The notes beneath the pieces are model-generated. The model was not told the DNA's origin and did not search any database. It saw only the letters and a program-made list of their open reading frames with translations. The position numbers and the translations under genes were made by a program. Shown in pieces: positions 4,779 to 63,937 of a DNA stretch of 64,000 nt. How positions within the stretch are numbered: position 1 is the first letter of the stretch; each line of letters begins with the position of its first letter. The stretch is from positions 26,725-90,724 of the forward strand of contig JBDTMN010000002.1 in the NCBI GenBank assembly GCA_039934295.1, written 5' to 3'. Source of the stretch: Candidatus Tayloriibacteriota bacterium (GTDB lineage: Bacteria > Patescibacteriota > Minisyncoccia > Phycocordibacterales > HO2-43-120).

Positions 4779-4960
4779 GCTCGTCCTATCCCCGTAGCAG
4801 AGCTAGCGGGGTATTCGGCGAGCGCATTTTATTTTGAAAACCCCTCGGTTTTCAACGCTCGCCGACTCGCTGCTTTCCGCCACGGGGAAACTCCCGTTTC
4901 CCCGACCCCCTTCCCAAACTCCGCATTCATCCCCGCAGCAGAGCTGTGGGGAATTCTGCG
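4779..4960 (-). repeat. GC-rich hairpin-rich intergenic repeat, diverged inverted copy (copy 3 of family at 12411 and 21496)
   Basis: The reverse complement shares the blocks ctgcKgcggggatgaatg and cgaataccccgc...cggggataggacgag with the other two copies. The central long hairpin is replaced by a different hairpin (cggggaaactcccgtttccccg). GC is far above the surrounding sequence. Confidence 0.55.
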
Positions 4961-4966
4961 GATTTA

Positions 4967-6511: not shown

Positions 6512-7250
6512 CGGTAAAATCCAAAAATCCGCTCGTCATAACAGCAATACCATTTTTGTCTATTGCATATCCTTCAAAGTCTGAAATACTTTCGATAAAT
6601 TCAATCCCTCGATTGCCCATGGCAAACGCCGCAGTCGCAAAACGGTCCGCCTCGTATACGTCGGGTCCAATAACCGTCAAACTCACCATGTCGGTTTCCA
6701 CCGATTTTCCAGAATGAGGATTATAGATATGCTTGCCTCGAATATACACTCCCGAAGTTGCCACGCCTCGGCCTTTAGGATACACCACTTTAACTATTTC
6801 ATCACGATTGAATGGACTGCGGATACCGACGCTCCATTCTTTGCCCTCCTCATCGATACCTCGCGATTCAATGTCCCCTCCTACATCTACGAAGAAATTT
6901 TTACAGCCCATTTTTTTCAAGAGTTGTGCCGCATTTTTTATTGCCCAGCCTTTGACAATCCCCGAAGGGTCGTATGAGCCATCCGGTTTTTGTATGTCGA
7001 AATATCCAAGCGTTTCTTTTTTTGTTTTTTCAGAGAGAGTGAAAATTTCTTTCATTTCCTTGCTCAATTTTTCAGACGAAATTTCCCCCCTGTTAATTCT
7101 AGAAATTTCGCTATCATATTTGTAGGTGCTGAATTTTTCATCAACATGCTCGAGATAGTCGAACACGCGGTCAAAATATTCCTGACTTCCCGGAATGTCT
7201 GCAATGTTAACGGTTACTGGCATTCCCATTATGTCTCGAGTTTGTTTCAT
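6498..7250 (-). CDS. apbE: FAD:protein FMN transferase (ApbE family)
   Basis: 250 aa. The N-terminus MGMPVTVNI...FDRVFDYLEHVDEKFSTYKYDSEISRINRG is the characteristic ApbE opening. It lies between an FMN-binding domain gene and a flavoprotein gene. Confidence 0.8.
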   Translation of the reverse strand: MKQTRDIMGMPVTVNIADIPGSQEYFDRVFDYLEHVDEKFSTYKYDSEISRINRGEISSEKLSKEMKEIFTLSEKTKKETLGYFDIQKPDGSYDPSGIVKGWAIKNAAQLLKKMGCKNFFVDVGGDIESRGIDEEGKEWSVGIRSPFNRDEIVKVVYPKGRGVATSGVYIRGKHIYNPHSGKSVETDMVSLTVIGPDVYEADRFATAAFAMGNRGIEFIESISDFEGYAIDKNGIAVMTSGFLDFTVAGF

Positions 7251-7256
7251 TATTTT

Positions 7257-7862
7257 TTAAATTTTTGCCTGTGCAAGAGCATATGCGAGAGATTGACGGA
7301 ATGCGGCACTTATGTCGGTTGCCCCCGAAACAGTGCTCACTTTTGCGCTTTGCGCCTGTATCGCTTCGCTTACCAATCGGGGCATCGCACGGCTACTTAT
7401 ACTCCTCGATGTACTGCGGTCATTCGGATATTGAAGAAAAGATATGTCAGTAATTTTTCCTCCGGCAATAGTAACTGCCACCTCGACGTTTCCATAATAC
7501 GCATCGGCAATACTGCCATTGTACGAACCATCAACATACTGGCCAGCTGGTTTTGGTTTTGGAATGATTATAGGAGTAGGTATTGGAGTCGGAATTGGGG
7601 TTGGAGTTGGAGAGAAAATAATTAAAGGTGTCGGCTTAGGTTTGGGTAATGGCTTTGGCGAAATGGAAGGAGAGACGGTGAGCGTGGGAATCGGTGTTGA
7701 AGGAGTAGTCGGCACAACTATGACTCCGTTGTCATTGACGCGAGAAAGCGGAATCGGGACGGTAACGACAAATGCAGGCGAGCTCGGATAAGCCAACGCC
7801 CGATACATTCCATATGCGGCAAAAGCTACAATAAATATTGCTGACGTAATGAATTTTCTCAT
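7257..7862 (-). CDS. FMN-binding domain protein (NqrC/RnfG-like), membrane-anchored with Pro/Thr/Lys-rich linker
   Basis: N-terminal TM helix, then the linker PKPLPKPKPTPLIIFSPTPTPIPTPIPTPIIIPKPKP. The FMN_bind core reads YVDGSYNGSIADAYYGNVEVAVTIAGGKITDISF...VSTVSGATDIS. The SGAT threonine motif is the ApbE flavinylation site. Confidence 0.8.
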   Translation of the reverse strand: MRKFITSAIFIVAFAAYGMYRALAYPSSPAFVVTVPIPLSRVNDNGVIVVPTTPSTPIPTLTVSPSISPKPLPKPKPTPLIIFSPTPTPIPTPIPTPIIIPKPKPAGQYVDGSYNGSIADAYYGNVEVAVTIAGGKITDISFLQYPNDRSTSRSISSRAMPRLVSEAIQAQSAKVSTVSGATDISAAFRQSLAYALAQAKI

Positions 7863-7952
7863 AGGTATTTTTGTTTCGGGCCTAAAGCTTATGCCCTAGC
7901 TTTATACCTACTTATACGCACCGCCCGCGTATTTCTTTCACCTTACGTCCTT

Positions 7953-8681
7953 CTATTCTGATTCTCCAGAAGAAAATCTTCGGACGCCACTTGCCTCTAT
8001 TTCGTCGTCATCTTCGCCAAAAGAAGGCCCGAAAACATATACCTTATCGCCGATTTTGAGAAGTGGAGAATCTGGAGGAAGAATAACCTTGCGCGTTCCG
8101 TCATCTTCATCATGGTCCTTGTCGTCATGAGAAATGACAATAGTGTTCCCTTCCTTAGAAACAACACTCCCCCGAAATATTCCTTTCTCAGCGTGCGACT
8201 CGCGAATACGTCCATACGCTCCTCCAATCAAAGGCAATACCCCTTCGTCTGCGCGGTTCAAAAGAATTCTATTGAGCGGAGTATAATTGGCAAGAACGCC
8301 CAAAATGGCACTCGACGCAAATATAAAAAGAAAGATCGGGAGGAGAGGAATCCGGTAGCCGAATTTGAATGCCTGCAAGAGCCATTCAAGCAGGAACAGG
8401 AGCGCAATACCTAGGAGAAAAAATGCCCACGGGAAAAGCGAGAGGAAAACAAGCGCGCCTTGCCCCCCAAAGCCGAGTAAGAAGTGCTGTCCGCTTTCCT
8501 GAATGCTGAAAAAGATGAAGCTCGCGAGAAAAATGGAGAGGAGGAGAACAAGCGCCGAAGTAAAAATAATGCCCGCTATGCGCACAGCAAAAAATGCTTT
8601 CGACTTCATATGCACTTTGCTCTTACGAACTTTATCGAGCACCATATTCTGAATATTCTGTTCTATATTTTTTTCACTCAT
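7953..8681 (-). CDS. Putative anti-sigma factor / membrane protein partner of the ECF sigma
   Basis: The ORF overlaps the stop of the ECF sigma gene. The likely start is the internal Met (MSEKNIEQ...) at about 8681. There are several TM helices and a C-terminal soluble domain. The call rests on context only. Confidence 0.4.
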   Translation of the reverse strand: MSEKNIEQNIQNMVLDKVRKSKVHMKSKAFFAVRIAGIIFTSALVLLLSIFLASFIFFSIQESGQHFLLGFGGQGALVFLSLFPWAFFLLGIALLFLLEWLLQAFKFGYRIPLLPIFLFIFASSAILGVLANYTPLNRILLNRADEGVLPLIGGAYGRIRESHAEKGIFRGSVVSKEGNTIVISHDDKDHDEDDGTRKVILPPDSPLLKIGDKVYVFGPSFGEDDDEIEASGVRRFSSGESE

Positions 8682-9234
8682 TTTCTTTTTTGGGTAACAG
8701 CTTTTTAAGCGCCTCACGCGCCCGGGAAAGACGGATACCAACTGTGCCAATCGGTATATGCAAAATGTCACCTATCTCTTTGTAGCTGAAATTTTCGAAA
8801 TAGTAGAGACCGATGATTTCTCGATAGGAAGACGAGAGCCCCAGCAGGCTCTTCTCTAGTAGTACGCGCATTTCCTCCGCTTCTTTCTCTTTTTCAAGCG
8901 GGTCCTCATATTCCGCATGGGACATCACTCGGTCAAGGTCGAAAAAGTATAATGGCTCTTTGGCTTTTTTTCGAATTACATCAACAAACGCATTGTGCGC
9001 AATGCGGTAAATCCAGGGCGAAAAACGACGTGTTGAATCGAAATCCTGTATATTTTGATACACCGTCACAAAAACATCCTGCACAACATCGCCCACATTA
9101 TTTTCCTTTGAGAGAACCCTGCTTCCATACCGAAGCAACTTTCCTGTATAGCGTTCCATGAGAATAGCGAACGCCCGTTCATCCCCTTTCTGCACTTGTC
9201 TTGCAAGTTCTTCGTCCGAAGCAACATTATCCAT
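8674..9234 (-). CDS. RNA polymerase sigma-70 factor, ECF subfamily
   Basis: 186 aa with region 2 (YRIAHNAFVDVIRKK) and region 4 HTH (FSYKEIGDILHIPIGTVGIRLSRAREALKK). Confidence 0.85.
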   Translation of the reverse strand: MDNVASDEELARQVQKGDERAFAILMERYTGKLLRYGSRVLSKENNVGDVVQDVFVTVYQNIQDFDSTRRFSPWIYRIAHNAFVDVIRKKAKEPLYFFDLDRVMSHAEYEDPLEKEKEAEEMRVLLEKSLLGLSSSYREIIGLYYFENFSYKEIGDILHIPIGTVGIRLSRAREALKKLLPKKENE

Positions 9235-9267
9235 ACTCGTATTCTAAACCGAAAAAAAACTCACTTA

Positions 9268-9579
9268 TTAATCGTTCTTTTCTTGCTTATTCAATCCCCA
9301 TTGCCACTTCGGCTTTTCGCCCGTAAGATAGCAGATTCCAATTAGCGCGAGAACGAGAATTGCGGTTTGGGGAACAAAACTTATGAGAAAATCGCTTATT
9401 GAATTTTGCGTAGAATCAGTGCGAAAGAAATTGAGCGTAATGAGAGCAAGAAAAACCGCCAGGACCAGCCAGCCCTGCCACGTGGCAGGCGTCCAACCCC
9501 AACCGTAGAGCTTGGCTTTGAACCAGTATCCCTTCGGATTATCTTTCAAATATGCGATGTATTCTTTGAGCATACTCAA
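9268..9579 (-). CDS. Small membrane protein
   Basis: 103 aa with two TM helices and a W-rich segment YGWGWTPATWQGW. Confidence 0.4.
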   Translation of the reverse strand: MSMLKEYIAYLKDNPKGYWFKAKLYGWGWTPATWQGWLVLAVFLALITLNFFRTDSTQNSISDFLISFVPQTAILVLALIGICYLTGEKPKWQWGLNKQEKND

Positions 9580-51809: not shown

Positions 51810-51881
51810 GGCCCTATCGTCTATCGGCTAGGACGGAGCCTTCTCAAGGCTCAAAGCAGGGTTCGACTCCCTGTAGGGTCA
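51810..51881 (+). tRNA. tRNA-Glu (anticodon CUC)
   Basis: GGCCCTATCGTCTATCGGCTAGGACGGAGCCTTCTCAAGGCTCAAAGCAGGGTTCGACTCCCTGTAGGGTCA. Acceptor is 7 bp including one G-U. D-loop has GG. Anticodon loop TTCTCAA. T-loop TTCGACT. Discriminator A. Manual fold. Confidence 0.7.
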
Positions 51882-52424
51882 CAGATTTTTGCGTAGCATA
51901 AAAAGCTGTGACACTAAGCAGAGCTGGGGGCTCTGCGTCAGGGAGTCGAAGCCCGATTGAGCATTTTTTTTGAGTTTGCTTCAAACGAGGAAAAAATCCA
52001 ATCGGGGTACTGAACATGTAATGTTCGACTCCCTGTAGGGTCACAAAAATAATGAGGACAATGCGGAGCATTGGCTGAGTATAATTTTGTAGATTCTACA
52101 GGGAGTCGAAAGACGGAGCGGGCACCCGTTCACCAGAACGGGTCGCGAGTCGGGGTCGCGGCTTTTGTGAGACGGCGGTCGAACAAAAAGCTGTGACCGA
52201 CTCCCTGTAGGGTCACAAATTTTTTTAAAGCGAGCAAACTGCTTTGCTCGTGAAAAATTTGTGAAGGCACAGGCCTAGTTCGCGAGTACGCGAACAGCCG
52301 AGCCGGGGTCGGCAAGTACTTACATTTTTTGTGATTTTAAGAAACAAAAAATTTAGTAACTTGTGACCACATAAACTTTGAGTGCGTAGCACACAATTAT
52401 GACCGACTCCCTGTAGGGTCACAG
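51861..52424 (+). repeat. Array of four direct copies (plus two inverted partial copies) of the tRNA-Glu 3' end (T-loop plus acceptor 3' strand)
   Basis: Direct copies (g/a)(t/c)cgactccctgtagggtcaca at 51861-51883 (in the tRNA), 52023-52045, 52197-52219 and 52401-52423. Inverted partial copies agggagtcgaa at 51941-51951 and 52101-52111. Spacings 162, 174 and 204 nt. Confidence 0.7.
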
Positions 52425-52432
52425 ATTTTCGC

Positions 52433-55400
52433 TCACAATAAGTTCTGTAACATCTCGATTATCCATCGCAAAATTTTATACAACGTGTTCCAAAACTCTT
52501 GCAAAATGCCCATGAAAGATGCGCTGAGTGCCTTCAAGACCCCTGCAGTAACATTGACGGGAGAAACCGAGTCGGTATTTGTTTTGATACTTACGCTTAC
52601 GCCCGGAGCTTCCTGGCCAGGATGATTGAAGCGGTAGCCGGCGGGAATATTGTCAGCGGTTTGAGCAGCGTTTGTTGGAGAATATGGCGGCCAGGAGAGT
52701 GAGCCGAACCATGCGGGTTTGGAGGAAAGGTAGAGAGAATTTGGCAGAGTCTGTCCTCCCGTCAAGGCTTCATTTGCAGGAATGCCTTTGCCGAAAATAT
52801 AGTTCTGTTTCCTGATGAACGTGAGTCCGACATCCATATCAAGTTCCTGGAATCCTTCTGATCTCGGCCAAAGACCTATGGCAGTTCCCTGTGCCGGAAG
52901 TGGGTCTAGGTATCCTCCGGTAAGAGAAACAGCATTGCCGGAAAAAGCAGTCGTATGCATGCCTATTCGAGCGCCATTGCTCCATTGCGTTGTAATCGCC
53001 GGACAATTTCCTCCAAAAGCCTGGCAGTATCCTAGCAGTCGCGAAGTTCCGGCGCTCAAGGTTACGACACCGCTTGAACCATCAGATGCGCGACTAGTGA
53101 GGGTACCTTTGATGCCGAGCCCGGCGACAGGGCTCCAGTCTAGCCAATATATGCCTTGGCTCGGTAGGGCAAATCCCGTGGAGGCTCCATTGCCGATGTT
53201 CGGCTGGCCGAGACTATATGCACCTACGACATTACCGATGGCACTAAAATTCCTGGAAAAACGCTTGAAGGCAAGAAAGCCCGATGTCCAGTTCCTAAAG
53301 AACATTTCTTCCGAATCGCTTCCAAAATAGCCGTCTGATTTGAATTCGCCTCCCTGCAAATAATTTCCTTCATATAGATTGTAGCTATTATGAGAACCAT
53401 GGTTGACGTTCACACTGCCGTCAGGCATATAATTGTAGGCGAAAACATTACCTACGGAACTAAAGTTTATTTCAAGAAGCGGGAATGATTTGTAAACGAT
53501 GTTATCTTCAAACAGACATCCGGTATTTCCTCCGCTCAAAAATCCAGAGCCATTTGTACCGCCATGGTTGAGCTCGTCGAGGAAGGAATGTCTGACCTCG
53601 CACCCCAAGCTATCATTAAAACTTATCGAGTAATTACTCATGTGTCTGACTTTGACATTCTTGACCCATGAAGCGTATGTGCCTCCAGCGCTTATTCCAA
53701 ATTGAGTGGTGGCATTTGACCCGTCAATGGTCAGGTCTTCAATACCGACATACCTTGAGGTTGCATAATTCGGCGCAGTGATGCTTGGCTGTCTCCCTGA
53801 AAAATCAACGATAAGAGGCGGGGAGAAGCTAAGGGCGCTACCTGACTTCCCAGTCAGAACCACAATCTGGGATTGGATATTTTCGTAGCCCGAGACTGAT
53901 ATAGTCGGTAGAGATGTTTTATTTTTTCCGCTTATTTTGACTATATTTCCAACTGTATATGGTGATGAGTCAGAAACGCTGACTTGAGTGCTTCCCTTCG
54001 AAGCGCCTGAAAGGACCGGCACGGCAGAAACATTGTAAAATTCAGATCCGCGTATATTCACACAGACGCTTGGAACATAACAATCAAGAATAGTACTCGC
54101 TCCTGCTCCGCGAAGCGTTATATTACTCTTAAAAGATGCGACGATCTGGGTCAAGATCTTATAGGTTCCCGCGGGCAAATAAACAATATCATTTGCCACC
54201 GCGGCGGTGATGGCACTATTTATGGCTGGAGCGGCATCGGTAGCTCCAGTTTTATCCGCATTGTAGGGCGCTTGGGTGACATCAATGAGATGAGTGCGAT
54301 TTGTCGGAATCCCTCCAGTAACGCCTGCGGTAACTCCAGGAATCCAGTTGGCCAAACGGTTTGAAGGTATCAAAGCAGATGATCCGCCTGGAGTGGTTGC
54401 TGCAACACCTGCCGACGGAGGCGAGACATTTCCGCCGTTATCTGTAGCCGTCACTGTGTATGTATACGTCGTACCTGGGGAGACGGTGAAGTCCTGGTAG
54501 TACTGCTGTTCCGTATCATGATACGGAGCTTGGTACGGTATGTGCGCAATAGTCCCTATCTGGGTTCCATTCCTATATATAGTATACGAAGTAATGGTTC
54601 CGGTTGTTGGCGTTGAGCGCAACCAGATAAGGCTGATTTGGTCTGGCGCCACGCCGGCAGCCGATACATAGGTCGGCGCGGGCACGCCACTTACTGAAGA
54701 TAAGTTGAATGTTGCTGTAACTGTCGTATTTGAAGCTACAGTGACTACACATGTCCCCGTTCCACTACATCCTCCTCCAGACCAACCGGTGAAGGTAGAG
54801 CCCGAAGTAGCTACAGCGGTAAGAGTTGAAACTGTGCCAGAGGTGAGGCCTGAAGCCGAACAGGTACTGCCACAACTCACAGATCCTCCTGTGGAAGTCA
54901 CCGTACCTCCTCCCGTGCCTGCCTTGGTGATCGTAAGAGTAAATGTTGTTGGCGTCGCTACTCCACTAGTAGTAACCGATAAAGCGGCTGACGGAACGGA
55001 GTTATTGGGAGCTCCCGCGTTGTCATAGGATGATATAGTGTATGAATATGTGGTGCTTGCCACAAGACCAGAGTTGGCGAAAGAGGTACCGGATGTTACC
55101 GTGCCCACTTGAGCCCCTCCTCTCCATACTTTGTATCCCGCCACGTTTCCTCCCCCAGTATCAGTCGAAGCTGTCCATGAAATAGTTGCTCCTGTTTGGG
55201 TTACGTTTGATGACGAAAGATTTGTAGGTACGGACGGAGCTTGTGTGTCTGAAGGAGAGCCGGAACCACTACCATCTGTAGCGGTAACACTTCTAAATCC
55301 GTAGTCAGTATCCGCGCCTCCATATGCCCTGAGCCAGCCTATGCCGGGTGCACCACTGGCAAAGGTGCTGTCAGTAGTCGTAAGTATGGAAACATTGTTG

Positions 55401-57745
55401 ACGTAAAGGGTGATGGTATTGCCGATCATCGTGCCTTTGATGGTACTGTTGTCAGTAAGAAATGGGGCTCCCTGTGCGGCACTCAAATTGGCCAATACCG
55501 TGAAGTTACCTAACGCACCATTCCAGCGAACGATAGAATAATATTGAGTACCAGTTGGACTGAGACCGTAGGTCAACTCATAGCCAGTATTGGAATGGGC
55601 TGAGATACTGCTACGTAGACGAATCTCGAGTTCCTCAACAGCACTTCCTGTAGGATTCACCGTATGCACAACAGCAGTGACTGTTTGATCTGGACCCCAA
55701 GTGCCGGAGAGTATAGCGGTAGAATCATCATAGCCACCTGAGGGCGGCTGTGTGCCATATACCAATCCATTTGCCATACGCATATCAGTCCAGTCTAGAC
55801 CTGTCGCCTTGCCGTTGATCCAGTTGCCGGATTCTGATAGAGGATTTTCTGCGCCACCGGAGAAAGTTGTGACATAGGTACGGGGATTGCCTGCTGAAAC
55901 CGCCTGCGTGGTTGCGCTCGCGGAAGATGATTGGGCCGATGGATTCCCTGCCGCGTCTTGCGCTAAGACTGTATATGAATATGAGGTGTTTGCGGTAAGA
56001 CCAGTACTCGAATACGAATTGGTGCTTGGTGTAGCTACTTGTGTGCCGTTTCTAAATACTTTGTATCCTGTAACCCCTACATTGTCTGTTGAAGCAGTCC
56101 AGGATAGGTTTATCTGGCTCGAAGATACCGCGGAAGCCGAAAGGTTCGTAGGGGTCGAAGGTGCGGTGGTGTCTGGGACAACAGAGATAGTCTCAGAGCA
56201 GGAGGCAGTGGTTCCTCCGTTTGATCCGGTACAACTCCAGAGACGCGCAGTCGAGGTGTCAGTAACATCTGCGAATGTGCCCGATGTGCACTGGTTGAGA
56301 GTGGTTGAACACAGACCGTTGACCGCTGTCCCCCCTCCTCCCCCCACTGCATTCAATAGCTCGGTGATTTCTTGAGCAGAGAGTGCTCGGCTGTAGATGC
56401 GGACTTCGTCAATAGAGCCGTTAAAGACCCAGTTCGGACCGAAGATGTTGTTTATAATGACAGATTTACTATTTGCATCAGTGGTCCCACTAGCGGCGGC
56501 TTCAGATTTTTTGACACCGTCCACCCAGATGCTGACTTTTGAACCGTCATACATACCGACAAGATGGTGCCAATTTGAATCAGTTATGGTTGGAGCCGCT
56601 CCGGATGAGTACTTCACCCCTCCGCTTGTGATTTGAAATTGTGGATTGAACGCATAGTTGTCAGAATACAAGCTCCATTCTATAGTTGCATAAGGACTTC
56701 CTTTTGTGACCAGATATTTCAATTGACCCACTTCATTATTACTCACTTGCTTAATCCATACTGAAACAGTCATGGCGTTTAACCCATCGAGTGCGTTAAT
56801 GTCTTTCGCATCGACATAATCATCCACCCCGTCAAACTTCAATCCCTGCCCGATCTTTCCCGTGGTAAATGTCGGTCCGTTTATGAGTGTGCCGGTATTT
56901 GATCCCACGGAGTCGTTAGCGTTACCGTCGAAGGCCCAGTAGCTTATGAGTTTGCCAACGGAGGTCGGTGGGGGCGGAGTAGGAGTGACTCCTCCACCTG
57001 TGGAGTTGTATATGTCGGTGATTTCTTGAGCAGAGAGTGCTCGGCTGTAGATGCGGACTTCGTCAATAGAGCCGTTAAAGACCCAGTTCGGACCGAAGAT
57101 GTTGTTTATAATGACAGATTTACTATTTGCATCAGTGGTCCCACTAGCGGCGGCTTCAGATTTTTTGACACCGTCCACCCAGATGCTGACTTTTGAACCG
57201 TCATACATACCGACAAGATGGTGCCAATTTGAATCAGTTATGGTTGGAGCCGCTCCGGATGAGTACTTCACCCCTCCGCTTGTGATTTGAAATTGTGGAT
57301 TGAACGCATAGTTGTCAGAATACAAGCTCCATTCTATAGTTGCATAAGGACTTCCTTTTGTGACCAGATATTTCAATTGACCCACTTCATTATTACTCAC
57401 TTGCTTAATCCATACTGAAACAGTCATGGCGTTTAACCCATCGAGTGCGTTAATGTCTTTCGCATCGACATAATCATCCACCCCGTCAAACTTCAATCCC
57501 TGCCCGATCTTTCCCGTGGTAAATGTCGGTCCGTTTATGAGTGTGCCGGTATTTGATCCCACGGAGTCGTTAGCGTTACCGTCGAAGGCCCAGTAGCTTA
57601 TGAGGTTACTTGAGGGAATAGCTTGAGCGCGCTGGGAAGAAGTGTAGACGTTATTAATTTGCTTGTTGAGTGTGGAAAAACTTAAAACTGCTACTAATAA
57701 AAGAAACGCTGTGGCAATAATGCCAAGAATGTGTTTTTTATACAT
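52433..57745 (-). CDS. Giant secreted/anchored surface protein (1770 aa): two identical LamG/ConA-like lectin domains, fibronectin-III-like domains, Thr/Ser/Gly-rich linkers, C-terminal right-handed beta-helix-like region
   Basis: N-terminal signal anchor. Duplicated about 196-aa segment LISYWAFDGNANDSVGSNTGTLINGPTFTTGKIGQGLKFDGVDDYVDAKD... (LamG-like). FN3-like PSTPTNLSASAVSSSQINLSWTASTDNVGVTGYKVFRNG. A later region with NxxG / parallel beta-helix-like repeats. Confidence 0.7.
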   Translation of the reverse strand: MYKKHILGIIATAFLLLVAVLSFSTLNKQINNVYTSSQRAQAIPSSNLISYWAFDGNANDSVGSNTGTLINGPTFTTGKIGQGLKFDGVDDYVDAKDINALDGLNAMTVSVWIKQVSNNEVGQLKYLVTKGSPYATIEWSLYSDNYAFNPQFQITSGGVKYSSGAAPTITDSNWHHLVGMYDGSKVSIWVDGVKKSEAAASGTTDANSKSVIINNIFGPNWVFNGSIDEVRIYSRALSAQEITDIYNSTGGGVTPTPPPPTSVGKLISYWAFDGNANDSVGSNTGTLINGPTFTTGKIGQGLKFDGVDDYVDAKDINALDGLNAMTVSVWIKQVSNNEVGQLKYLVTKGSPYATIEWSLYSDNYAFNPQFQITSGGVKYSSGAAPTITDSNWHHLVGMYDGSKVSIWVDGVKKSEAAASGTTDANSKSVIINNIFGPNWVFNGSIDEVRIYSRALSAQEITELLNAVGGGGGTAVNGLCSTTLNQCTSGTFADVTDTSTARLWSCTGSNGGTTASCSETISVVPDTTAPSTPTNLSASAVSSSQINLSWTASTDNVGVTGYKVFRNGTQVATPSTNSYSSTGLTANTSYSYTVLAQDAAGNPSAQSSSASATTQAVSAGNPRTYVTTFSGGAENPLSESGNWINGKATGLDWTDMRMANGLVYGTQPPSGGYDDSTAILSGTWGPDQTVTAVVHTVNPTGSAVEELEIRLRSSISAHSNTGYELTYGLSPTGTQYYSIVRWNGALGNFTVLANLSAAQGAPFLTDNSTIKGTMIGNTITLYVNNVSILTTTDSTFASGAPGIGWLRAYGGADTDYGFRSVTATDGSGSGSPSDTQAPSVPTNLSSSNVTQTGATISWTASTDTGGGNVAGYKVWRGGAQVGTVTSGTSFANSGLVASTTYSYTISSYDNAGAPNNSVPSAALSVTTSGVATPTTFTLTITKAGTGGGTVTSTGGSVSCGSTCSASGLTSGTVSTLTAVATSGSTFTGWSGGGCSGTGTCVVTVASNTTVTATFNLSSVSGVPAPTYVSAAGVAPDQISLIWLRSTPTTGTITSYTIYRNGTQIGTIAHIPYQAPYHDTEQQYYQDFTVSPGTTYTYTVTATDNGGNVSPPSAGVAATTPGGSSALIPSNRLANWIPGVTAGVTGGIPTNRTHLIDVTQAPYNADKTGATDAAPAINSAITAAVANDIVYLPAGTYKILTQIVASFKSNITLRGAGASTILDCYVPSVCVNIRGSEFYNVSAVPVLSGASKGSTQVSVSDSSPYTVGNIVKISGKNKTSLPTISVSGYENIQSQIVVLTGKSGSALSFSPPLIVDFSGRQPSITAPNYATSRYVGIEDLTIDGSNATTQFGISAGGTYASWVKNVKVRHMSNYSISFNDSLGCEVRHSFLDELNHGGTNGSGFLSGGNTGCLFEDNIVYKSFPLLEINFSSVGNVFAYNYMPDGSVNVNHGSHNSYNLYEGNYLQGGEFKSDGYFGSDSEEMFFRNWTSGFLAFKRFSRNFSAIGNVVGAYSLGQPNIGNGASTGFALPSQGIYWLDWSPVAGLGIKGTLTSRASDGSSGVVTLSAGTSRLLGYCQAFGGNCPAITTQWSNGARIGMHTTAFSGNAVSLTGGYLDPLPAQGTAIGLWPRSEGFQELDMDVGLTFIRKQNYIFGKGIPANEALTGGQTLPNSLYLSSKPAWFGSLSWPPYSPTNAAQTADNIPAGYRFNHPGQEAPGVSVSIKTNTDSVSPVNVTAGVLKALSASFMGILQEFWNTLYKILRWIIEMLQNLL
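56361..57604. repeat. Apparently perfect 590-bp tandem duplication (56361-56950 and 57015-57604) with a 64-nt linker, inside the giant gene
   Basis: The ORF track shows two identical 79-aa + strand ORFs 654 nt apart. My read of the nucleotides shows identity from tcggtgatttcttgagcagag to cccagtagcttatgag in both blocks. Confidence 0.8.
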
Positions 57746-57916
57746 GCGATAATAATACAGAAAAAATTTTTCTTAGACTACAAAGATATCCACAGATACA
57801 TTATACGCAATAGATTACGCATGTTTGTCAAAAGTAATTCGCCGGATGAAATTTCATTCTATCTAAAAAAAATTCCGGAACTTTCCTAAATTAAAGCAGA
57901 GAAAGATGCTTTTTCA

Positions 57917-60793
57917 CTACCGAATAATCCCTACATATTTAAGCCAACCGAGGAAAGCACCCGCAACGCCTGCCCAATAGGAAGTCGACTGGGTTGTCGG
58001 TGCCGCGGTTATGGTAATCTCACCAACTTTGTATCGGCTGTTCCCTGCATCAGACACCCCAGATCCGGGAGTGAAGACGAGGCGTTCAGAACCGACGTAC
58101 ATACCAACGAGAACGTCGTATGATCCAACTGGGATATCATCGATGGATTTGGATGATGGAGTAGACATGGTTCCTGCTGACCACTGATCGGTCGGAGGAT
58201 TTGGGAAGAAGCCGAAGCTAACTACTTTGCTCCGATCAACTTTGTTGTTCAGGAATACGAATACCGACCAGCTTTGCTTTCCTAGAGAAAGTCTGTACGG
58301 TCCTCCAGACCAGTTCAGAGTGTAATTGAGGGTTTGGCCGACTTGGATGCTCGAAGGAGCATTCCAAGGAAGAACGGTGGGTTGAGTTTGAACCTGTTGA
58401 ATAGCTGGAACTGAAACTGCCAAATCTCTAGAGACTGAAGCGCCTGCACTGTTTCTGCACGTGAGCGTATAGTTGGCATTTGAAGTCAACACTCCTGTAT
58501 TGATAGCCTCGCTAGCTCTGTATGAAGCGTTGCTGAAGTTTGGACCATTCAGAGTACAGCCCGTTGCATTTGTCGCCGACCATACCAATGTCGTAGATCG
58601 GACATCGTTGGTGATAGGTTGTGAAGTTCTAAAATCAGTTATCGAAGGAGCAGGTGCATTAGTAGTGTTTGGAGCCGCCGTAACCGTAATCTCCCCGACC
58701 TTGTATCGACTGCTACCTGCATCAGATACTCCGGACCCTGGAGCAAAGACCAGACGTTCCGAGCCGACGTACATACCAACAAGGACGTCATATGAACCGG
58801 GAGGAATGTCAGAAGTAGACTTGGATGATGGAGTAGACATGGTTCCTGCAGGCCACTGCGCCGTTGGTGGATTTGGGAAGAAGCCAAAGTTAACTTCTTT
58901 GCTCCGATCAGCTTTGTTGCGCAAGAATACGAATACCGACCAGTTTTGCTTTGCTAGAGAAAGTCTGTACGGTCCTCCAGACCAATTCAAAGTATAGTTC
59001 AGAGTCTGACCAGCTTGGATAGTAGAAGGCGCATTCCAAGGGAGGACGGTGGGGGTTCCGGCTGCTGGGTTGGTAGTAACGGGAGGAAGTGTCGTAGTTG
59101 GAGGAGGATTGGTTGTTGCGGGGGGATTGGCGGGAACAGGTGTTACCGGAGGGTTTGAAGGGGTTACTGGTGTAACCGTTGTTGGCACATACCTAAAGAC
59201 TACCTTTGATACTTGGCCAGCAGTTATATTCACTGGCACCGAACAAAAACCAAGAGAGCAGGTAACATTGGTTTTTGAATATGATGATTGACTGCCGATG
59301 AGACACTCTGTCCCCTGATTGTTGAGGCCTCCGCCTGCAAATGTGCACGAAGCCGAGTATTCATCATATCCAAAAAGATCGGTGGCGTATGCGGTGTGTT
59401 GACCTACTGACGGATTAAATTGCCCTGCTCCTGTGCCGGAGCCTAGAGAAACTGTATACGGGTTTGCTGCTCCTACGGAAGAAATACTGTCCACGGTCGC
59501 CTGTGTTCCGGAAATAGGATTGAGATCGGCATCTACTCGCTTGATGATGAGGTTGGGAGAAAATGTGGACACGGTCCCAGCCCCAGAACCGGTACTTATA
59601 AAACTTGCCCTACTTGCACCTACAAATGGCGCAGTTGAAGGAGAAACTCCGCTCTGCTGACCATTGTAGACTATCACGTCAGTCGAACCGCTGAACCTAA
59701 CCCCGTCGGAAGAAATCTTGACTTGGTATTTTGTGCCGTTCGTAGAACCAACCATGTCGTTTGGTAGATCTATAGAAAGAAACCATTGGGCCGACGTAGA
59801 TTGGTTGTCGATGGTAAGAGTCTTTGTGTAGTTTTTACCGGTAATATTGACATAATATCTAGCGATGGAAGGGTCTATGATAATAGCGTCTCGCGGCCAC
59901 ACATTATACGGTGCAGTTGGGGAGAAATTTTGTATGTAGACCTTAGATAGAGTACACGAAGATGTATTGGTCTCTGACGGACACGTACGCACAGCATACT
60001 GATAATCCCTCACTACCTTGTGGGATGTCTGATACAGTCTCATCGATGAGAGGTTCGGACTAACTATCTTCAAGGTAGATGGCGGGCTCCAAGTCTTTTC
60101 CCCATCTATGGAATAACTCACTTGAATAGACGAGCCGACGACGGCATTGGCGGAAACAGTAAATGGAGTGGCGGGAACCGAAGTGAAATCCACTTGTCCA
60201 TTGCCTATAGATCCACCTATAGTTCCAGAAAATATTCTGGTAGTGCTTAGATTGCTCAATGTCACCGTATTGGTCGGATAGACAACGCGGACTGAAGAAG
60301 TTTTCACTGTAGAAAGAGCTCCCAGTAAAATATACATCTGTTCACCGCGATAGGCGGTTTTGGTCGATGCTGCAAAAGCTTCAAGCACGATGAACTCTGG
60401 AGCTTTCGGTGTGACCTGTGTAGCTGTTTGTCCGCCTTGTACACCACCAGTGGCTGTAGAGGTGACTTTGTCCAAATATCGCTCTTCAACCCAACCCGTG
60501 CCTGCATAATCAAAGTCAACCGCCCATGACCAAGTACCGAGACTATTGGACAGTGCTGGAACATTCGGTCGTATTGTACCGACAAAGTCTTTTTTGGCAG
60601 TGTTTCCATTTGTTAGTTCAACAGAAACGTTGGAATTGATCTTAACGCGATCACCTGTCTTAAACTTGGTTGAAATCTGAGAAGCTGTCGGTGTAACCCC
60701 TTGAGCATGAATCGGGTTAGCTACTATAAAGGTGAAGGCCAGTACAATCGCCGACAAAGCTAAGAAACGTGCATATGTTTTCATAAAAATCAA
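57917..60793 (-). CDS. Giant secreted surface protein (958 aa) with internal 130-aa repeats and a Pro/Thr-rich linker
   Basis: Signal peptide MIFMKTYARFLALSAIVLAFTFIVANPIHA, linker PVTPSNPPVTPVPANPPATTNPPPTTTLPPVTTNP, two diverged copies of TVLPWNAPS(T/S)IQ(A/V)GQTLNYTLNWSGGPYRLSL... and a hydrophobic C-terminus. Confidence 0.65.
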   Translation of the reverse strand: MIFMKTYARFLALSAIVLAFTFIVANPIHAQGVTPTASQISTKFKTGDRVKINSNVSVELTNGNTAKKDFVGTIRPNVPALSNSLGTWSWAVDFDYAGTGWVEERYLDKVTSTATGGVQGGQTATQVTPKAPEFIVLEAFAASTKTAYRGEQMYILLGALSTVKTSSVRVVYPTNTVTLSNLSTTRIFSGTIGGSIGNGQVDFTSVPATPFTVSANAVVGSSIQVSYSIDGEKTWSPPSTLKIVSPNLSSMRLYQTSHKVVRDYQYAVRTCPSETNTSSCTLSKVYIQNFSPTAPYNVWPRDAIIIDPSIARYYVNITGKNYTKTLTIDNQSTSAQWFLSIDLPNDMVGSTNGTKYQVKISSDGVRFSGSTDVIVYNGQQSGVSPSTAPFVGASRASFISTGSGAGTVSTFSPNLIIKRVDADLNPISGTQATVDSISSVGAANPYTVSLGSGTGAGQFNPSVGQHTAYATDLFGYDEYSASCTFAGGGLNNQGTECLIGSQSSYSKTNVTCSLGFCSVPVNITAGQVSKVVFRYVPTTVTPVTPSNPPVTPVPANPPATTNPPPTTTLPPVTTNPAAGTPTVLPWNAPSTIQAGQTLNYTLNWSGGPYRLSLAKQNWSVFVFLRNKADRSKEVNFGFFPNPPTAQWPAGTMSTPSSKSTSDIPPGSYDVLVGMYVGSERLVFAPGSGVSDAGSSRYKVGEITVTAAPNTTNAPAPSITDFRTSQPITNDVRSTTLVWSATNATGCTLNGPNFSNASYRASEAINTGVLTSNANYTLTCRNSAGASVSRDLAVSVPAIQQVQTQPTVLPWNAPSSIQVGQTLNYTLNWSGGPYRLSLGKQSWSVFVFLNNKVDRSKVVSFGFFPNPPTDQWSAGTMSTPSSKSIDDIPVGSYDVLVGMYVGSERLVFTPGSGVSDAGNSRYKVGEITITAAPTTQSTSYWAGVAGAFLGWLKYVGIIR

Positions 60794-61052
60794 AATTAAT
60801 TACAGCTTCTAAATGATACAGAAAGTATACAGTATTGACTTCCGCATACCAAGATAGTTATACACAAGCATATTGCTAAAAGTTGAACGGTCGGAGACAT
60901 TTTCTATCACAGCGATGCATCATCGAAGCGCGTTTGTATAGCAAATGAAGTAAATTTCATCCCACAAGGGCAACTTTCTGAACTCTCCCAAAGAAAAAAG
61001 GATGTCCACTTGGAACATCCTCGATGTAACTGACTGAAACTTTGACGACCGT

Positions 61053-61418
61053 CTACCAGGTCCAGGACGGACGATGACCCGCAAAATTGCGGCGGACCCA
61101 GGAGGCAAACTCGCCAAACGTGAAGTGGCAGTAGATAGACTGCGCTTCCTGCGCAATCCTTCGCCATTTTTTTTCGCCGAGGCGAAGCCACGCCAGCGTT
61201 AACCGCTGGAGATTCGCCTTTTCCTCGCTAATCAAGCCGAGGCCGTATTTGAACGCTATCAGACACGCCTTTGCAAGTGAAATCCGGTTTACAAAAACCT
61301 TCATCACCACCCCCTTCCTCATTGTCTTGGAGAGCATGTCTCCTCGTGCGAATGCCGACGTTGCATCGGCTTTTGAGTGGATGGTTGATGTGGATTCCGT
61401 CTTGCCTGTTTTTTTCAT
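61053..61418 (-). CDS. Hypothetical ORF in a GC-elevated patch (uncertain)
   Basis: 121-aa ORF in a 0.8-kb region of locally high GC with no other convincing gene. Could be a gene remnant or an RNA. Confidence 0.2.
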   Translation of the reverse strand: MKKTGKTESTSTIHSKADATSAFARGDMLSKTMRKGVVMKVFVNRISLAKACLIAFKYGLGLISEEKANLQRLTLAWLRLGEKKWRRIAQEAQSIYCHFTFGEFASWVRRNFAGHRPSWTW

Positions 61419-61597
61419 GGAGTTCTACCTTTACCGTTGTACTGCTGTTTGTTTTTGTTGGTCGGAGAGGAATAGGCCAACATACAAGAACACGACTCCC
61501 ATTTCCTGTAGGAGAACAGCTCCAAGAAGGAATCTACCATAAAGAAAATTAAATAGCAACCCCCCGCCCCCGCCATATGGGGAAAAACCTCATTTCT

Positions 61598-62023
61598 TTA
61601 AAACTGCGCTATTTCATTCGAAGAAACGATACTCCAAATGCCTCCGGTTTCTTTTGCCAGCGTCTCCACATTGGAATAGGTATTTTGGAATCGAGAACGG
61701 GTCCGAATGAGCAAATCCACTCCCTGGGGCATTATTGAAAAAATCGTGCATTTGTGCTCGGTCTCCGTTTCCGAAAGTGAAATCTCATCTCCTCCAGATG
61801 ACGGCGAATATGCGCTATTTGTTGATAATTTTAAAAGCGCGATGTCTCTGCAACTTTTCGCAAATGACGAGCTCATCTCCTTAAATTCAGAATCTAAAAC
61901 ATTGAACCTCGCCGAGAATCCCCCGAGATTCAGCGTGAAAACAATGGTCGTCATAATAAGAGAGATGAGAATGACCGAAATCAGCGCGATGAACCCTTTT
62001 TCTTTTTTAGATGAACACGTCAT
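61598..62023 (-). CDS. Prepilin-like / pseudopilin protein
   Basis: N-terminus KKEKG|FIALISVILISLIM has a prepilin-type cleavage site G-F and a hydrophobic helix, but no Glu5. 4-nt overlap with the upstream gene. Confidence 0.55.
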   Translation of the reverse strand: MTCSSKKEKGFIALISVILISLIMTTIVFTLNLGGFSARFNVLDSEFKEMSSSFAKSCRDIALLKLSTNSAYSPSSGGDEISLSETETEHKCTIFSIMPQGVDLLIRTRSRFQNTYSNVETLAKETGGIWSIVSSNEIAQF

Positions 62024-62538
62024 TGAATCAATTTGATTAACTCATATACTTCTCCTTTAATCGTAAGGAAAACTTTCACGAATTCTTTTCCGTTCGCGCT
62101 CTCGTGTTCAAATGATAGAGCGTCAATGGAAACAAAATCGCTATTCAATTTATTTTCGGGTGATGCTCCTCTTCTTAGCATGATACTTTTTCCCGCTGGG
62201 TCAAAACTCAACGTTAAAGAAATTCCGGACCCGCGCAGAGAGAGCGTTGACCCAGAACTACCCAATGCGGGCACTGATACAGACGTAACTCCGGCAAACA
62301 AGGAATCAATCTTTTTGAGCAAGAAATTTGTCTCTTCAATGAGCAGGACTTTTTCGCTCATGGCATTTTCGTTTGCAATAACCTGATATGCAGTCTGAAG
62401 AAAACTTCCCATGATAAGAGCAAGAAGGGCAATGTAAATGAGAGACTCGATGAGGGTGAAGCCGCGGGAATATGTAACATGTAACTTGTAACATGAAACA
62501 TGGAAAAATCTTTTTTGCATTTTTGATTTCATGGTCAA
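62020..62538 (-). CDS. Type IV pilin-like protein with long leader
   Basis: SRG|FTLIESLIYIALLALIMG is the canonical prepilin N-methylation/cleavage motif with Glu5. The leader is 20-26 aa depending on which Met is used. Confidence 0.7.
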   Translation of the reverse strand: MTMKSKMQKRFFHVSCYKLHVTYSRGFTLIESLIYIALLALIMGSFLQTAYQVIANENAMSEKVLLIEETNFLLKKIDSLFAGVTSVSVPALGSSGSTLSLRGSGISLTLSFDPAGKSIMLRRGASPENKLNSDFVSIDALSFEHESANGKEFVKVFLTIKGEVYELIKLIQ

Positions 62539-62560
62539 ATGTTAAATGTTACATGCTACA
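62471..62560. repeat. Inverted pair of heptamer GTAACA-type arrays. One arm is inside the pilin leader-coding region, the other in its 5' UTR
   Basis: atgtaacatgtaacttgtaacatgaaacat (62471-62500) and aatgttaaatgttacatgctacatgc (62537-62562) are mutually reverse-complementary heptamer runs flanking the start codon region. Confidence 0.5.
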
Positions 62561-62575
62561 TGCTTCCTGTCATTC

Positions 62576-63937
62576 CTAGTTTCCTTTTACAAATATTATT
62601 TTGTTTGGAGTTGCAACATACATTGTATTCCCCTCGCAGTCGAGGCTTATGCCGTCTCCATTCAAGTTGATGTCTCCAATTTTTACAATGTTGCTCGGGT
62701 CTTTCACATTCCATATTTGAAATTCTTCCGCCCCAACTAGTGTTGCAAGAAATGCCTTGTCGCTTCGAACAAAAATGTCATTCACACTCTTCCCTATTTT
62801 TTCCGACCCAACCGAGCTCTCAGATTTTGTATCAATAATGTGCAATTCATGATTAGACGCGATCGTTCCTCCATAAGTTCTTCCGAGATAAACCGTATCC
62901 CCCAATGGATAAAGACTCTTCCCGCTCTGGGTTAGAAATTGAGTCAATGTAATACTTCCGATTTCCTTGATATCACTGGGATCATTCACATCCAAAATTC
63001 TCATTTGTTTACTGCTGGCGGTAGCTAGATACGCCTTCGCTCCGACAACATAGATGTCGTTTACTACATTCCCTATCTCAAAGCTTCCGAGCAATGAGGG
63101 ACTAAGAGGGTCAGAGACATCTATAACGGAGAATTCAGGGTAGCTCGGTGAATTATTTGTTCCGAGAAACACTTTTTTATTCGAATAGAAAATGCTACTC
63201 GAAGTTCTATTGTCATTTATTCCTACAATGGAAGGCAACTTCAATTCTTTTTTAAGCAATGGATTAGAAGAATCAGACACATCAATAATCTGAAGTTGCG
63301 CGTTTATGCTTCCATTTGCAACATACGCGTAATCTCCTGCTACATGCAGAGCGTTGAGACCTGGGCCCGTGGTTATACTCGATACTATTTGAATATCTGA
63401 ATGATTAGAAATATCCACAATGTGAAAATCGGGTTGAAGCGGAGTGCTTGAATTCGTCGTCACATATATTTTATTATTGAGAACATCAATTTGGGTGATG
63501 TCAGTGAGACTTGAAATAGACGCAATTTCGCTTGGATTACTCCAATCATCGGTTAGAAACATGTCGCAGGTATCCGTTCCGAGAGCGTTTTCTGAATTCG
63601 TCGCAATTCTTGATAGTACCACTTGGTGTTTTCCACCATCCCAACTGACAGCGCTTTCTACAGATTTCGCAAAATTCGTTATCGGTTCAACAGTAATTGT
63701 TTTTTCAAAAATCCCGTCGGCAACCAAAGTGTTTTGCAGAGAATAGAAATCTTCGAGTAGAAAGATTTCGAGTCCTGATTTTGCTTTTGCGAGAGCGATT
63801 AGCGACAGTTCCGCCTGCAAAATCATGCTCCTGCTCCCGAAAGAAACCAAAATCACGGCAGTTATAACCAAAATACCCACTGAAAAAGCAACAAGTATTT
63901 CAAGCGTGCTCATGCCTTGTGAAGATTGTTCGTTCAT
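62576..63937 (-). CDS. Pilin-like N-terminus fused to an LVIVD-repeat beta-propeller (putative minor pilin / adhesin)
   Basis: QG|MSTLEILVAFSVGILVI is a prepilin motif with Glu5. At least four LVIVD-type repeats follow (YAYVANGSINAQLQIIDVSDSSNP, KVFLGTNNSPSYPEFSVIDVSDPLSP, KAYLATASSKQMRILDVNDPSDI, KAFLATLVGAEEFQIWNVKDPSNI). Confidence 0.65.
   Translation of the reverse strand: MNEQSSQGMSTLEILVAFSVGILVITAVILVSFGSRSMILQAELSLIALAKAKSGLEIFLLEDFYSLQNTLVADGIFEKTITVEPITNFAKSVESAVSWDGGKHQVVLSRIATNSENALGTDTCDMFLTDDWSNPSEIASISSLTDITQIDVLNNKIYVTTNSSTPLQPDFHIVDISNHSDIQIVSSITTGPGLNALHVAGDYAYVANGSINAQLQIIDVSDSSNPLLKKELKLPSIVGINDNRTSSSIFYSNKKVFLGTNNSPSYPEFSVIDVSDPLSPSLLGSFEIGNVVNDIYVVGAKAYLATASSKQMRILDVNDPSDIKEIGSITLTQFLTQSGKSLYPLGDTVYLGRTYGGTIASNHELHIIDTKSESSVGSEKIGKSVNDIFVRSDKAFLATLVGAEEFQIWNVKDPSNIVKIGDINLNGDGISLDCEGNTMYVATPNKIIFVKGN

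Follow-up and report, generated by a model that had tools for sequence, protein, structure and literature searches.

Cultivated Patescibacteria are episymbionts, and type IV pili are used by them for host binding (PMC9894109, PMC12206443). We analyzed two adjacent genes from this group, here called P1 and P2, which lie on the minus strand of a 64,000-nt stretch of a Candidatus Taylorbacteria metagenome-assembled genome (MAG; contig JBDTMN010000002.1, positions 26,725 to 90,724; hereafter the window, whose numbering is used throughout). A first-pass annotation of this DNA had described the products as two giant secreted proteins with lectin, FN3, beta-helix and unrecognized repeat domains, and had proposed them as a candidate attachment apparatus, plausibly that of an episymbiont. 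We found that their architecture falls in a known class, that of modular secreted glycan-active surface proteins. Patescibacteria genomes are tiny, and they commonly encode large mosaic proteins of adhesin- or enzyme-like character. With about 8 kb of such a genome spent on two predicted surface proteins, P1 and P2 are reasonable candidates for dealing with foreign surfaces.

The reading that we prefer, to which we give a probability of roughly 0.55 as a whole, is that P1 and P2 are lineage-specific mosaic surface proteins, P1 being a lectin-guided depolymerase and P2 a surface-retained binder. The two proteins would be assembled separately and exported by the Sec route to the surface or surroundings of the cell. 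In P1, two LamG domains together with FN3 and immunoglobulin (Ig)-like spacers would present a C-terminal PF12708 beta-helix, and this helix, with its invariant ladder of acidic, His and Asn residues, would bind and cleave polysaccharide as a tailspike does on capsule or O-antigen. In P2, variable N-terminal domains would be followed by a conserved C-terminal cassette consisting of a 4-Cys domain, a Pro/Thr linker, two copies of a beta-sandwich module flanking an Ig-like domain, and a short hydrophobic or amphipathic tail, with the module acting as an accessory domain that binds glycans or surfaces. The likeliest target would be a foreign polysaccharide, either of a host cell envelope or of a biofilm matrix; host envelope, biofilm or environmental polysaccharide, and the cell's own envelope cannot be separated as targets from sequence.

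Predicted export signals and the architecture of P1

P1 (52433..57745) encodes 1770 amino acids from an ATG start codon, and P2 (57917..60793) encodes 958 amino acids from a TTG, or 955 from the start chosen by NCBI, which is Met4; all features of the two genes given below are on the minus strand. Both large open reading frames (ORFs) are thus present as first annotated, and ORFs of this length cannot be explained by chance. Exact look-up identified P1 as MEO8637464.1, a "LamG-like jellyroll fold domain-containing protein", and P2 as "hypothetical protein ABI430_01010", each from a Candidatus Taylorbacteria MAG and both on the same 99,441-bp contig. Each protein is a singleton cluster at 90% identity, and the relatives of P2 have individual domains alone in common with it (31-47% identity), indicating that these are not conserved core genes of related genomes. 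P1 and P2 look like variable, lineage-specific surface genes rather than a conserved two-gene system. The genes run in the same direction with a gap of 171 nt, in which no minus-strand terminator-like site was found, suggesting that they are possibly co-transcribed. Between 52 and 60 kb of the window the guanine-cytosine (GC) content is higher and the GC skew is positive; horizontal transfer was considered on this basis and set aside, because a Ser/Thr/Gly/Ala/Pro-rich composition can account for both features.

Hydropathy was calculated on the Kyte-Doolittle scale in 19-residue windows with a threshold of 1.6. Windows above the threshold were solely N-terminal, at residues 2-10 of P1 (maximum 2.59, at residue 6) and residues 2-12 of P2 (maximum 2.23). 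The top hydropathy window of P1 falls within a predicted signal peptide or signal anchor at residues 1-25, MYKKHILGIIATAFLLLVAVLSFST (57671..57745), and P2 begins with a predicted Sec-type signal peptide at residues 1-30 (…FIVANPIHA/QG; 60704..60793) in which a canonical signal-peptidase-like site, IHA/QG, can be read. Both proteins are rich in Ser, Thr and Gly, and their cysteines are even in number and occur in close pairs. It is from the combination of a sole, N-terminal hydrophobic segment, even and paired cysteines, the IHA/QG site of P2 and Ser/Thr/Gly richness that we infer export of both proteins. The hydropathy profile agrees with the signal or anchor N-termini reported at first pass, and the Thr/Pro linkers reported with them are visible in the translations (P1 residues ~250-265, P2 residues 541-581). 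Pfam and NCBIfam scans and a regular-expression search found no class III signal peptide (G/[FM]T[LI]xE, N_methyl) in either protein, and therefore P1 and P2 are not pilins. Neither has an LPXTG-like motif near its C-terminus, where hydropathy stays under the transmembrane threshold, indicating that they are not sortase substrates.

The C-terminal part of P1 is a right-handed parallel beta-helix (residues 1125-1735, 52541..54373) that belongs to PF12708 ("GH28-related"). When residues 1100-1770 were scanned alone, PF12708 matched residues 1161-1368 with 41 bits against a cutoff of 27; in a scan of the whole 1770-residue protein the family was absent from the matches at E<=0.01. Among the candidates that were scored, 556 homologs of the beta-helix were found at E<=1e-3, and the 120 listed are 36-63% identical to P1 in alignments that cover as much as 93% of the query; most of them carry PF12708. 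Most members of this family are stand-alone proteins of ~600 amino acids, with names that include "glycosyl hydrolase family 28-related" and "pectate lyase-like", and they come from Patescibacteria and also from Verrucomicrobiota. A 48-sequence alignment has ~60 invariant columns, all of which are kept by P1, and the invariant residues on successive rungs include E237, E284, R286, E314, N316, H350, E360 and D372 (numbered within the segment; P1 numbering is +1099).

The AlphaFold2 (AF2) model of the P1 C-terminus (predicted local distance difference test score, pLDDT, 88) is a right-handed beta-helix with short strands every ~25 residues. A Foldseek search of the PDB with this model returned solely beta-helix enzymes, led by the Klebsiella phage depolymerases or lyases 9k4a and 7w1c and the tailspikes 4ru4, 4ru5 and 4y9v (E 6e-13 to 4e-11), followed by GH110 galactosidases and the AlgE4 epimerase (E to 1e-7), and the BFVD library of viral structures gave the same picture. 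The beta-helix profile also matches N-terminal cap regions, namely those of the pectin-lyase-fold protein 7chu, AlgE4, a GH87 enzyme and rhamnogalacturonase A. We regard the P1 beta-helix as a candidate polysaccharide depolymerase that would be catalytically active, and the annotation of P1 can become that of a lectin-guided, tailspike-like depolymerase candidate instead of "LamG-like".

Relatives of the beta-helix that are 23-35% identical to it are encoded on 26 IMG/VR viral contigs. On viral contigs L012 (1536-7662) and L015 (1665-7746), proteins of ~1220 and 240-315 amino acids and a beta-helix relative of ~600 amino acids form a colinear trio that looks like a tape-measure, distal-tail and tailspike order; of 10 proteins tested from these contigs, none matches any PHROG at E<=1e-5. 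Among the beta-helix homologs P0111-P0226, many stand-alone members end at the very C-terminus in …IPAGYRY.HG.DP…(Q)KP.NVRI…, a motif that looks like the opening strand of an FN3 domain whose other strands are missing. P1 carries a counterpart of this motif, …SPVNVTAG…, and then its extra amphipathic helix (residues 1741-1769, 52439..52525; helix 642-670 of the model, pLDDT 57-82), which is not present in the listed family homologs, as judged by a comparison of C-termini.

At the other end of P1, Laminin_G_3 (PF13385) matches two stretches with 150.6 bits against a cutoff of 27.6 and covers model positions 1-150 of 151. Copy 1 is a concanavalin A-like lectin domain (residues 48-245, 57011..57604) whose weak PDB match is 5hon, an arabinanase chain resembling a carbohydrate-binding module (CBM), and copy 2 (residues 266-463, 56357..56950) is its exact tandem duplicate. 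Every codon is identical between residues 48-243 and 266-461, a span of 588 nt, and edges of 4-5 residues have diverged. Either this repeat arose very recently, by duplication or gene conversion, or short-read assembly produced it as an artefact, and the true LamG copy number in P1 could differ. A short linker module with paired cysteines (residues 470-520, C479/C486 and C505/C516; 56186..56338) follows the lectin domains and has no family match in Pfam or NCBIfam.

The fn3 model (PF00041) matches three stretches of P1 with 81.4 bits against a cutoff of 25, corresponding to FN3 domain 1 (residues 525-612, 55910..56173), domain 2 (residues 833-915, 55001..55249; 53% identical to domain 1) and domain 3 (residues 1022-1118, 54392..54682), and the closest PDB entry is the FN3 domain of chitinase A1 (1k85, E 3.4e-18). 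Between domains 1 and 2 lies an uncharacterized, beta-rich domain of ~210 amino acids (residues 620-830, 55256..55888) with no match in Pfam, NCBIfam or PDB sequences, and between domains 2 and 3 lies an InlB B-repeat-like domain (Flg_new_2, PF18998; residues 949-1015, 54701..54901) that scores 22.2 bits, slightly under the cutoff of 23.6. The lectin, FN3 and beta-helix domains read from the translation at first pass are therefore all recovered, with PF13385, PF00041 and PF12708 above their cutoffs.

The P2 module and its C-terminal cassette

No part of P2 matches Pfam-A, NCBIfam or PHROGs at or above a curated cutoff. The protein contains two copies of a beta-sandwich module, copy A at residues 582-708 (58670..59050) and copy B at residues 806-932 (57998..58378), which are 86-90% identical in amino acids and 78% identical in nucleotides. 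The first-pass annotation had described two diverged copies of a 130-residue unit that it did not recognize; the two copies are there, and at this level of identity "diverged" is too strong a word for them. The copies differ by 46 synonymous and 22 non-synonymous codon changes, indicating that both are under purifying selection and that P2 is genuine, constrained coding sequence. A phmmer search run exhaustively against 1.84 billion cluster representatives recovered the module in 106 proteins at E<=1e-3, of which 32 reach E<=1e-10 and two reach E<=1e-30, and because these are 50%-identity clusters the family comprises at least 106 of them. The module is novel in that no curated family reaches its cutoff, and it is neither unique to this genome nor free of resemblance to a cataloged family, as it has a weak likeness to DUF4832.

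An alignment of 42 copies has invariant Trp and Tyr residues, and the motif NWsGGP…FVHF…P.PT..WsG…VP…PpGTY.V.vGLY…RL.L..GsGV..D…RY.VGTiTV can be read. The AF2 model built from that alignment is a 10-strand beta-sandwich with a pLDDT of 94.5. Foldseek found no close solved structure for it, the best matches being NIS1, the Wzt C-domain and CARDB with template modeling (TM) scores of 0.4-0.56 and E>=1.5e-4, and a profile search of PDB sequences gave nothing significant. NIS1 is a fungal effector, and the Wzt C-domain is a glycan binder that recognizes O-antigen. DUF4832 (PF16116) has weak matches in 17 of the 42 module copies (best E 2e-4), and in whole multi-copy proteins the match reaches 3e-12, over model positions ~122-207 of 216, which is the C-terminal ~85 positions; the scores of single copies are all under the gathering cutoff of 29.2 bits, and P0002 scores 23.9 bits. 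The module is an uncataloged family and probably a distant relative of the C-terminal sandwich of DUF4832. A literature search for functional information on DUF4832 found none, and to our knowledge the family has no assigned function.

Tandem arrays of 2-4 copies are common among module proteins, and the module is frequently the last domain. It co-occurs with GH9, GH16, GDSL lipase, PG_binding_1, TIG, PKD, Beta_helix, PMT_2/GT39 and an M6-like protease, and among its more remote members are a GT39 glycosyltransferase cluster from Anaerolineae, a protein similar to GH9 cellulases and another similar to M6 metalloproteases. This pairing with many carbohydrate- or envelope-active domains is the pattern of an accessory binding module and is our main ground for proposing glycan binding. 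The module is most likely an accessory domain that binds glycans or surfaces. Module loci were scanned for with one very strict pattern from a narrower alignment, since the 42-sequence set was too diverse, and the taxonomic spread obtained is a lower bound. With this pattern we found five module loci among genome representatives, which were Saccharibacteria, Patescibacteria, Taylorbacteria and Paceibacterota MAGs and one MAG labeled "uncultured archaeon", and four more in metagenomes; none was found in viral contigs. In the related Taylorbacteria genome the module sits on a different protein, of 1871 amino acids with TIG domains. The domains of P1 are all of known kinds, and it is the P2 module, an uncataloged domain family with a confidently predicted fold that falls in the broad class of beta-sandwich accessory domains, that deserves an entry in Pfam.

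Residues 31-414 of P2 (59552..60703) form a lineage-specific beta-rich region with no match in Pfam or NCBIfam and no homolog among 237 collected proteins searched by local phmmer. Residues 415-540 (59174..59551) form an uncataloged 4-Cys domain that recurs in proteins P0055 (three copies) and P0024 (two copies). A Pro/Thr linker follows (residues 541-581, 59051..59173), and between the two module copies lies a small Ig-like domain with one Cys pair (C746/C779; residues 716-797, 58403..58648), which has local phmmer matches in P0073, P0055 and P0084 and belongs to no curated family of Pfam or NCBIfam. The order of 4-Cys domain, linker and module is colinear with the C-termini of P0055 and P0024. 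The recurrence of P2 domains in these two proteins indicates that P2 is a mosaic of shuffled domains, and the 4-Cys domain, linker and module make up a conserved C-terminal cassette. A homolog search with the whole of P2 returned P2 itself only, and low-complexity linker words probably dominated the candidates.

The closest architectural relative of P2 is P0055, with its three 4-Cys domains and the module. It is encoded at 4827-8468 and 8739-9503 of locus L005 (CAZEBH010000018.1, labeled "uncultured archaeon"), apparently split by a frame change at ~8015, and a small LamG_3 protein follows. The flanking genes of this locus encode Toprim, LemA, an M48 peptidase and thymidylate kinase, and are compatible with either an archaeal or a bacterial contig.

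P2 ends in a weakly hydrophobic tail, STSYWAGVAGAFLGWLKYVGIIR (residues 936-958, 57920..57988). Many module homologs carry a short, conserved amphipathic tail 8-30 residues after the last module, for example …SVWDAFKSLFGF, …SIWDSIKGLFGF and …SVWNAIKSWFGFE, with a consensus of approximately S-[IV]-W-[DN]-[AS]-[IF]-K-x-[LF]-F-G-F, and in the position of the P2 tail homologs carry S-x-W-D-A-F-K-x-L-F-G-F. Such tails are present in P0009, P0011, P0015, P0018, P0021, P0024, P0030, P0031, P0034, P0035, P0040, P0044 and P0047, and at loci L002, L004, L007 and L008. A loose form of the pattern occurs 20 times in the 170,429 residues of the 237 proteins, and 15 of these occurrences are within the last 30 residues, all in module proteins; none of the 120 beta-helix homologs has the pattern at its C-terminus. 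The tail of P2 is longer and more hydrophobic than those of its homologs, and the tail of P1 is a different, appended helix. NCBIfam has no model for the tail, and a literature search for a C-terminal sorting signal of Patescibacteria or for "PamR" found nothing relevant.

The recurring tail, a sequence pattern, is a cheap and testable lead to a possible surface-sorting signal. A speculative proposal, which we hold to be improbable, is that module and tail together make up a cassette, so far undescribed, with which Patescibacteria sort proteins or anchor them in the envelope; the P2 tail would then be a divergent version, and the P1 helix would be unrelated. If this were true, the cassette would let ultra-small cells display interchangeable passengers (lectins, hydrolases, proteases), with a function analogous to that of LPXTG/sortase or of the C-terminal domains of the type IX secretion system, and the surface proteome of an uncultivated superphylum could be read from a list of the proteins with tails.

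Genomic neighbourhood and rival explanations

Pilin-like genes lie upstream of P2 on the same strand, separated from it by ~800 nt without a recognizable gene (60794-61597). The first of them spans 61598-62023, and the second (62020-62538) has an N_methyl motif and weak ComGE/GspI-like matches. The third gene (62576-63937) encodes a 453-residue protein with a prepilin-like N-terminus (…QGMSTLEILVAFSVGILVI…) and an LVIVD beta-propeller (PF08309, E 9e-12), and looks like a modular minor pilin with a propeller domain. Within the interval are a 121-residue ORF (61053-61418, minus strand) with no family match, two minus-strand terminator-like hairpins at 61022-60998 (10-bp stem, T-run) and 61514-61496, and a minus-strand promoter-like site between the former hairpin and P2 (60852-60824).

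On the other side of the locus is a plus-strand tRNA-Glu(CUC) gene (51810-51882). Its 3' 18-mer, GACTCCCTGTAGGGTCAC, is present in four exact copies, with repeats at 52027, 52199 and 52405 (to 52422), and the stop codon of P1 is 10 nt from the last copy. Inverted 11-mers, TCGACTCCCTG, occur at 51939-51949 and 52099-52109, so that folding gives long closed hairpins for the units 51930-52046 and 52092-52218 (-48.5 and -75.6 kcal/mol; z -5.7 and -8.5), for which Rfam has no match. Scars of att sites, structured RNAs derived from tRNA and miniature mobile elements are all possible identities for these units. The genes beyond P1 encode a methylpurine glycosylase, an alpha/beta hydrolase, YqeY and RmuC, and no integrase or phage structural gene was found in the flanks. 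The setting described at first pass, with tRNA-Glu repeats (51810-52422) on one side and pilin-like genes (61598-63937) on the other, is accurate.

We considered whether P1 and P2 are a dedicated apparatus with which an episymbiont attaches to its host, acting with the adjacent type IV pilus genes. The organism belongs to the Patescibacteria, minor-pilin-like genes are directly upstream on the same strand, and a tailspike-like depolymerase would fit work on a host envelope. We nevertheless consider this explanation unlikely, because the terminator-like hairpin at 61022-60998 and the promoter-like site at 60852-60824 stand between the pilin genes and P2, the prepilin motif is in neither protein, and both domain families are also present in lineages that are not episymbiotic. 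In addition, a beta-helix homolog adjoins the module protein at 0 of the 9 other module-bearing loci, which leaves the apparatus proposed at first pass unsupported as a unit. The work on Saccharibacteria cited above concerns pili and not proteins of the P1 or P2 type. Host attachment by P1 or P2 is plausible, and the term "episymbiont attachment" is an overstatement, since its ground is lineage and predicted surface location and the beta-helix of P1 suggests cleavage at least as much as adhesion. We know of no cultivated host system for Taylorbacteria, which also counts against a dedicated attachment apparatus. An origin of P1 as the remnant tail fibre or tailspike of a prophage integrated at tRNA-Glu was rejected as very improbable. 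The distance of 10 nt between the end of P1 and the last tRNA-Glu 3' copy recalls att-site scars, the fold is tailspike-like and relatives are on viral contigs; however, the N-terminus of P1 is an export signal and not a virion-attachment domain, the flanks hold cellular genes and pilins with no integrase or phage structural gene, and the PHROG matches of P1 come from its generic LamG and FN3 domains only. Moreover, identity to P1 is higher in cellular homologs (40-63%) than in viral ones (23-35%), and the tRNA-Glu repeats have a spacing of 160-210 nt, which is too small for an element to lie between them.

It is possible, if somewhat doubtful, that the proteins serve in nutrient scavenging, where P1 would degrade extracellular polysaccharide and P2 would be a CBM-type binder, neither with a role in cell-cell attachment. 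LamG, FN3 and a catalytic domain on one chain are the classic layout of a secreted carbohydrate-active enzyme, the FN3 domain nearest to that of P1 is from chitinase A1, GH9 and GH16 proteins are among the carriers of the module, and beta-helix homologs are named GH28-related. Set against this, the closest folds are phage depolymerases that act on cell-surface polysaccharides rather than enzymes of plant polymers, and the tails suggest that the proteins remain on the cell. A further view is that the P2 module and tail are a cell-proximal stalk or anchoring cassette for diverse passengers on the Patescibacteria envelope and not a ligand binder. The module is the last domain in many homologs, with an amphipathic tail such as SVWDAFKSLFGF after it, the tail pattern is concentrated at the C-termini of module proteins (15 of 20 occurrences), and the N-terminal passengers are very varied. 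Yet the module is also found just after signal peptides and in internal tandem arrays, the GT39 and Anaerolineae module proteins have no tail, a membrane span would need longer and less polar tails, and no candidate sorting enzyme is known for the cassette, so that we think a pure stalk or anchor improbable for P2.

Several points also weigh against our preferred reading of P1 as a lectin-guided depolymerase and P2 as a surface-retained binder. Foldseek TM-scores for the P1 beta-helix are low, at 0.2-0.4, and hence the fold class and general function are fixed by the comparison and the substrate is not. The C-terminal tails of P1 and P2 fall short of the transmembrane hydropathy threshold, which makes surface retention uncertain. 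The module has neither a close solved relative nor a demonstrated sugar site, and could be a structural spacer. The beta-helix family extends beyond episymbionts, for example to Verrucomicrobiota, and does not imply host interaction, and the nine other loci examined do not conserve the adjacency of P1 and P2. A specialist would find these results unsurprising, and no new mechanism is demonstrated by them.

Comparison with known systems

Saccharibacteria that practice episymbiosis by type IV pili (PMC9894109, PMC12206443) belong to the same superphylum as the organism studied here, and pilin-like genes adjoin P2 in the window; in contrast to that system, neither P1 nor P2 is a pilin, and a terminator-like site lies between P2 and the pilin genes. 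The module of P2 is weakly similar to the C-terminal part of DUF4832 and resembles the CARDB, NPCBM_assoc and Wzt_C sandwiches, its predicted fold being like those of CARDB, Wzt-C and NIS1. It differs from them in that the copies in P2 itself have no DUF4832 match at E<=1 and that TM is <=0.56 to any solved structure.

For P1, the nearest solved structures are phage depolymerases and tailspikes, among them S2-4 of Klebsiella phage K64-1 (9k4a), a K1-specific lyase (7w1c), gp49 of Pseudomonas phage LKA1 (4ru4) and gp54 of Acinetobacter phage AP22 (4y9v). Like these proteins, P1 has a right-handed parallel beta-helix of ~500-600 amino acids, here at its C-terminus; unlike them, it has a Sec-type N-terminus, lectin and FN3 domains and no phage context, and sequence identity is 9-13% with a global TM of 0.25-0.4. 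P1 also resembles PF12708 (Pect-lyase_RHGA_epim), to which it has a match above the cutoff, as do most of its close homologs, although the Pfam model spans about one third of the conserved ~610-residue unit of the P1 type and the match does not assign a hydrolase, lyase or epimerase type. Finally, while its putative catalytic domain is a beta-helix and not a TIM-barrel glycoside hydrolase, P1 follows the same logic of LamG or CBM, FN3 and catalytic domains as secreted modular carbohydrate-active enzymes such as Bacillus chitinase A1.

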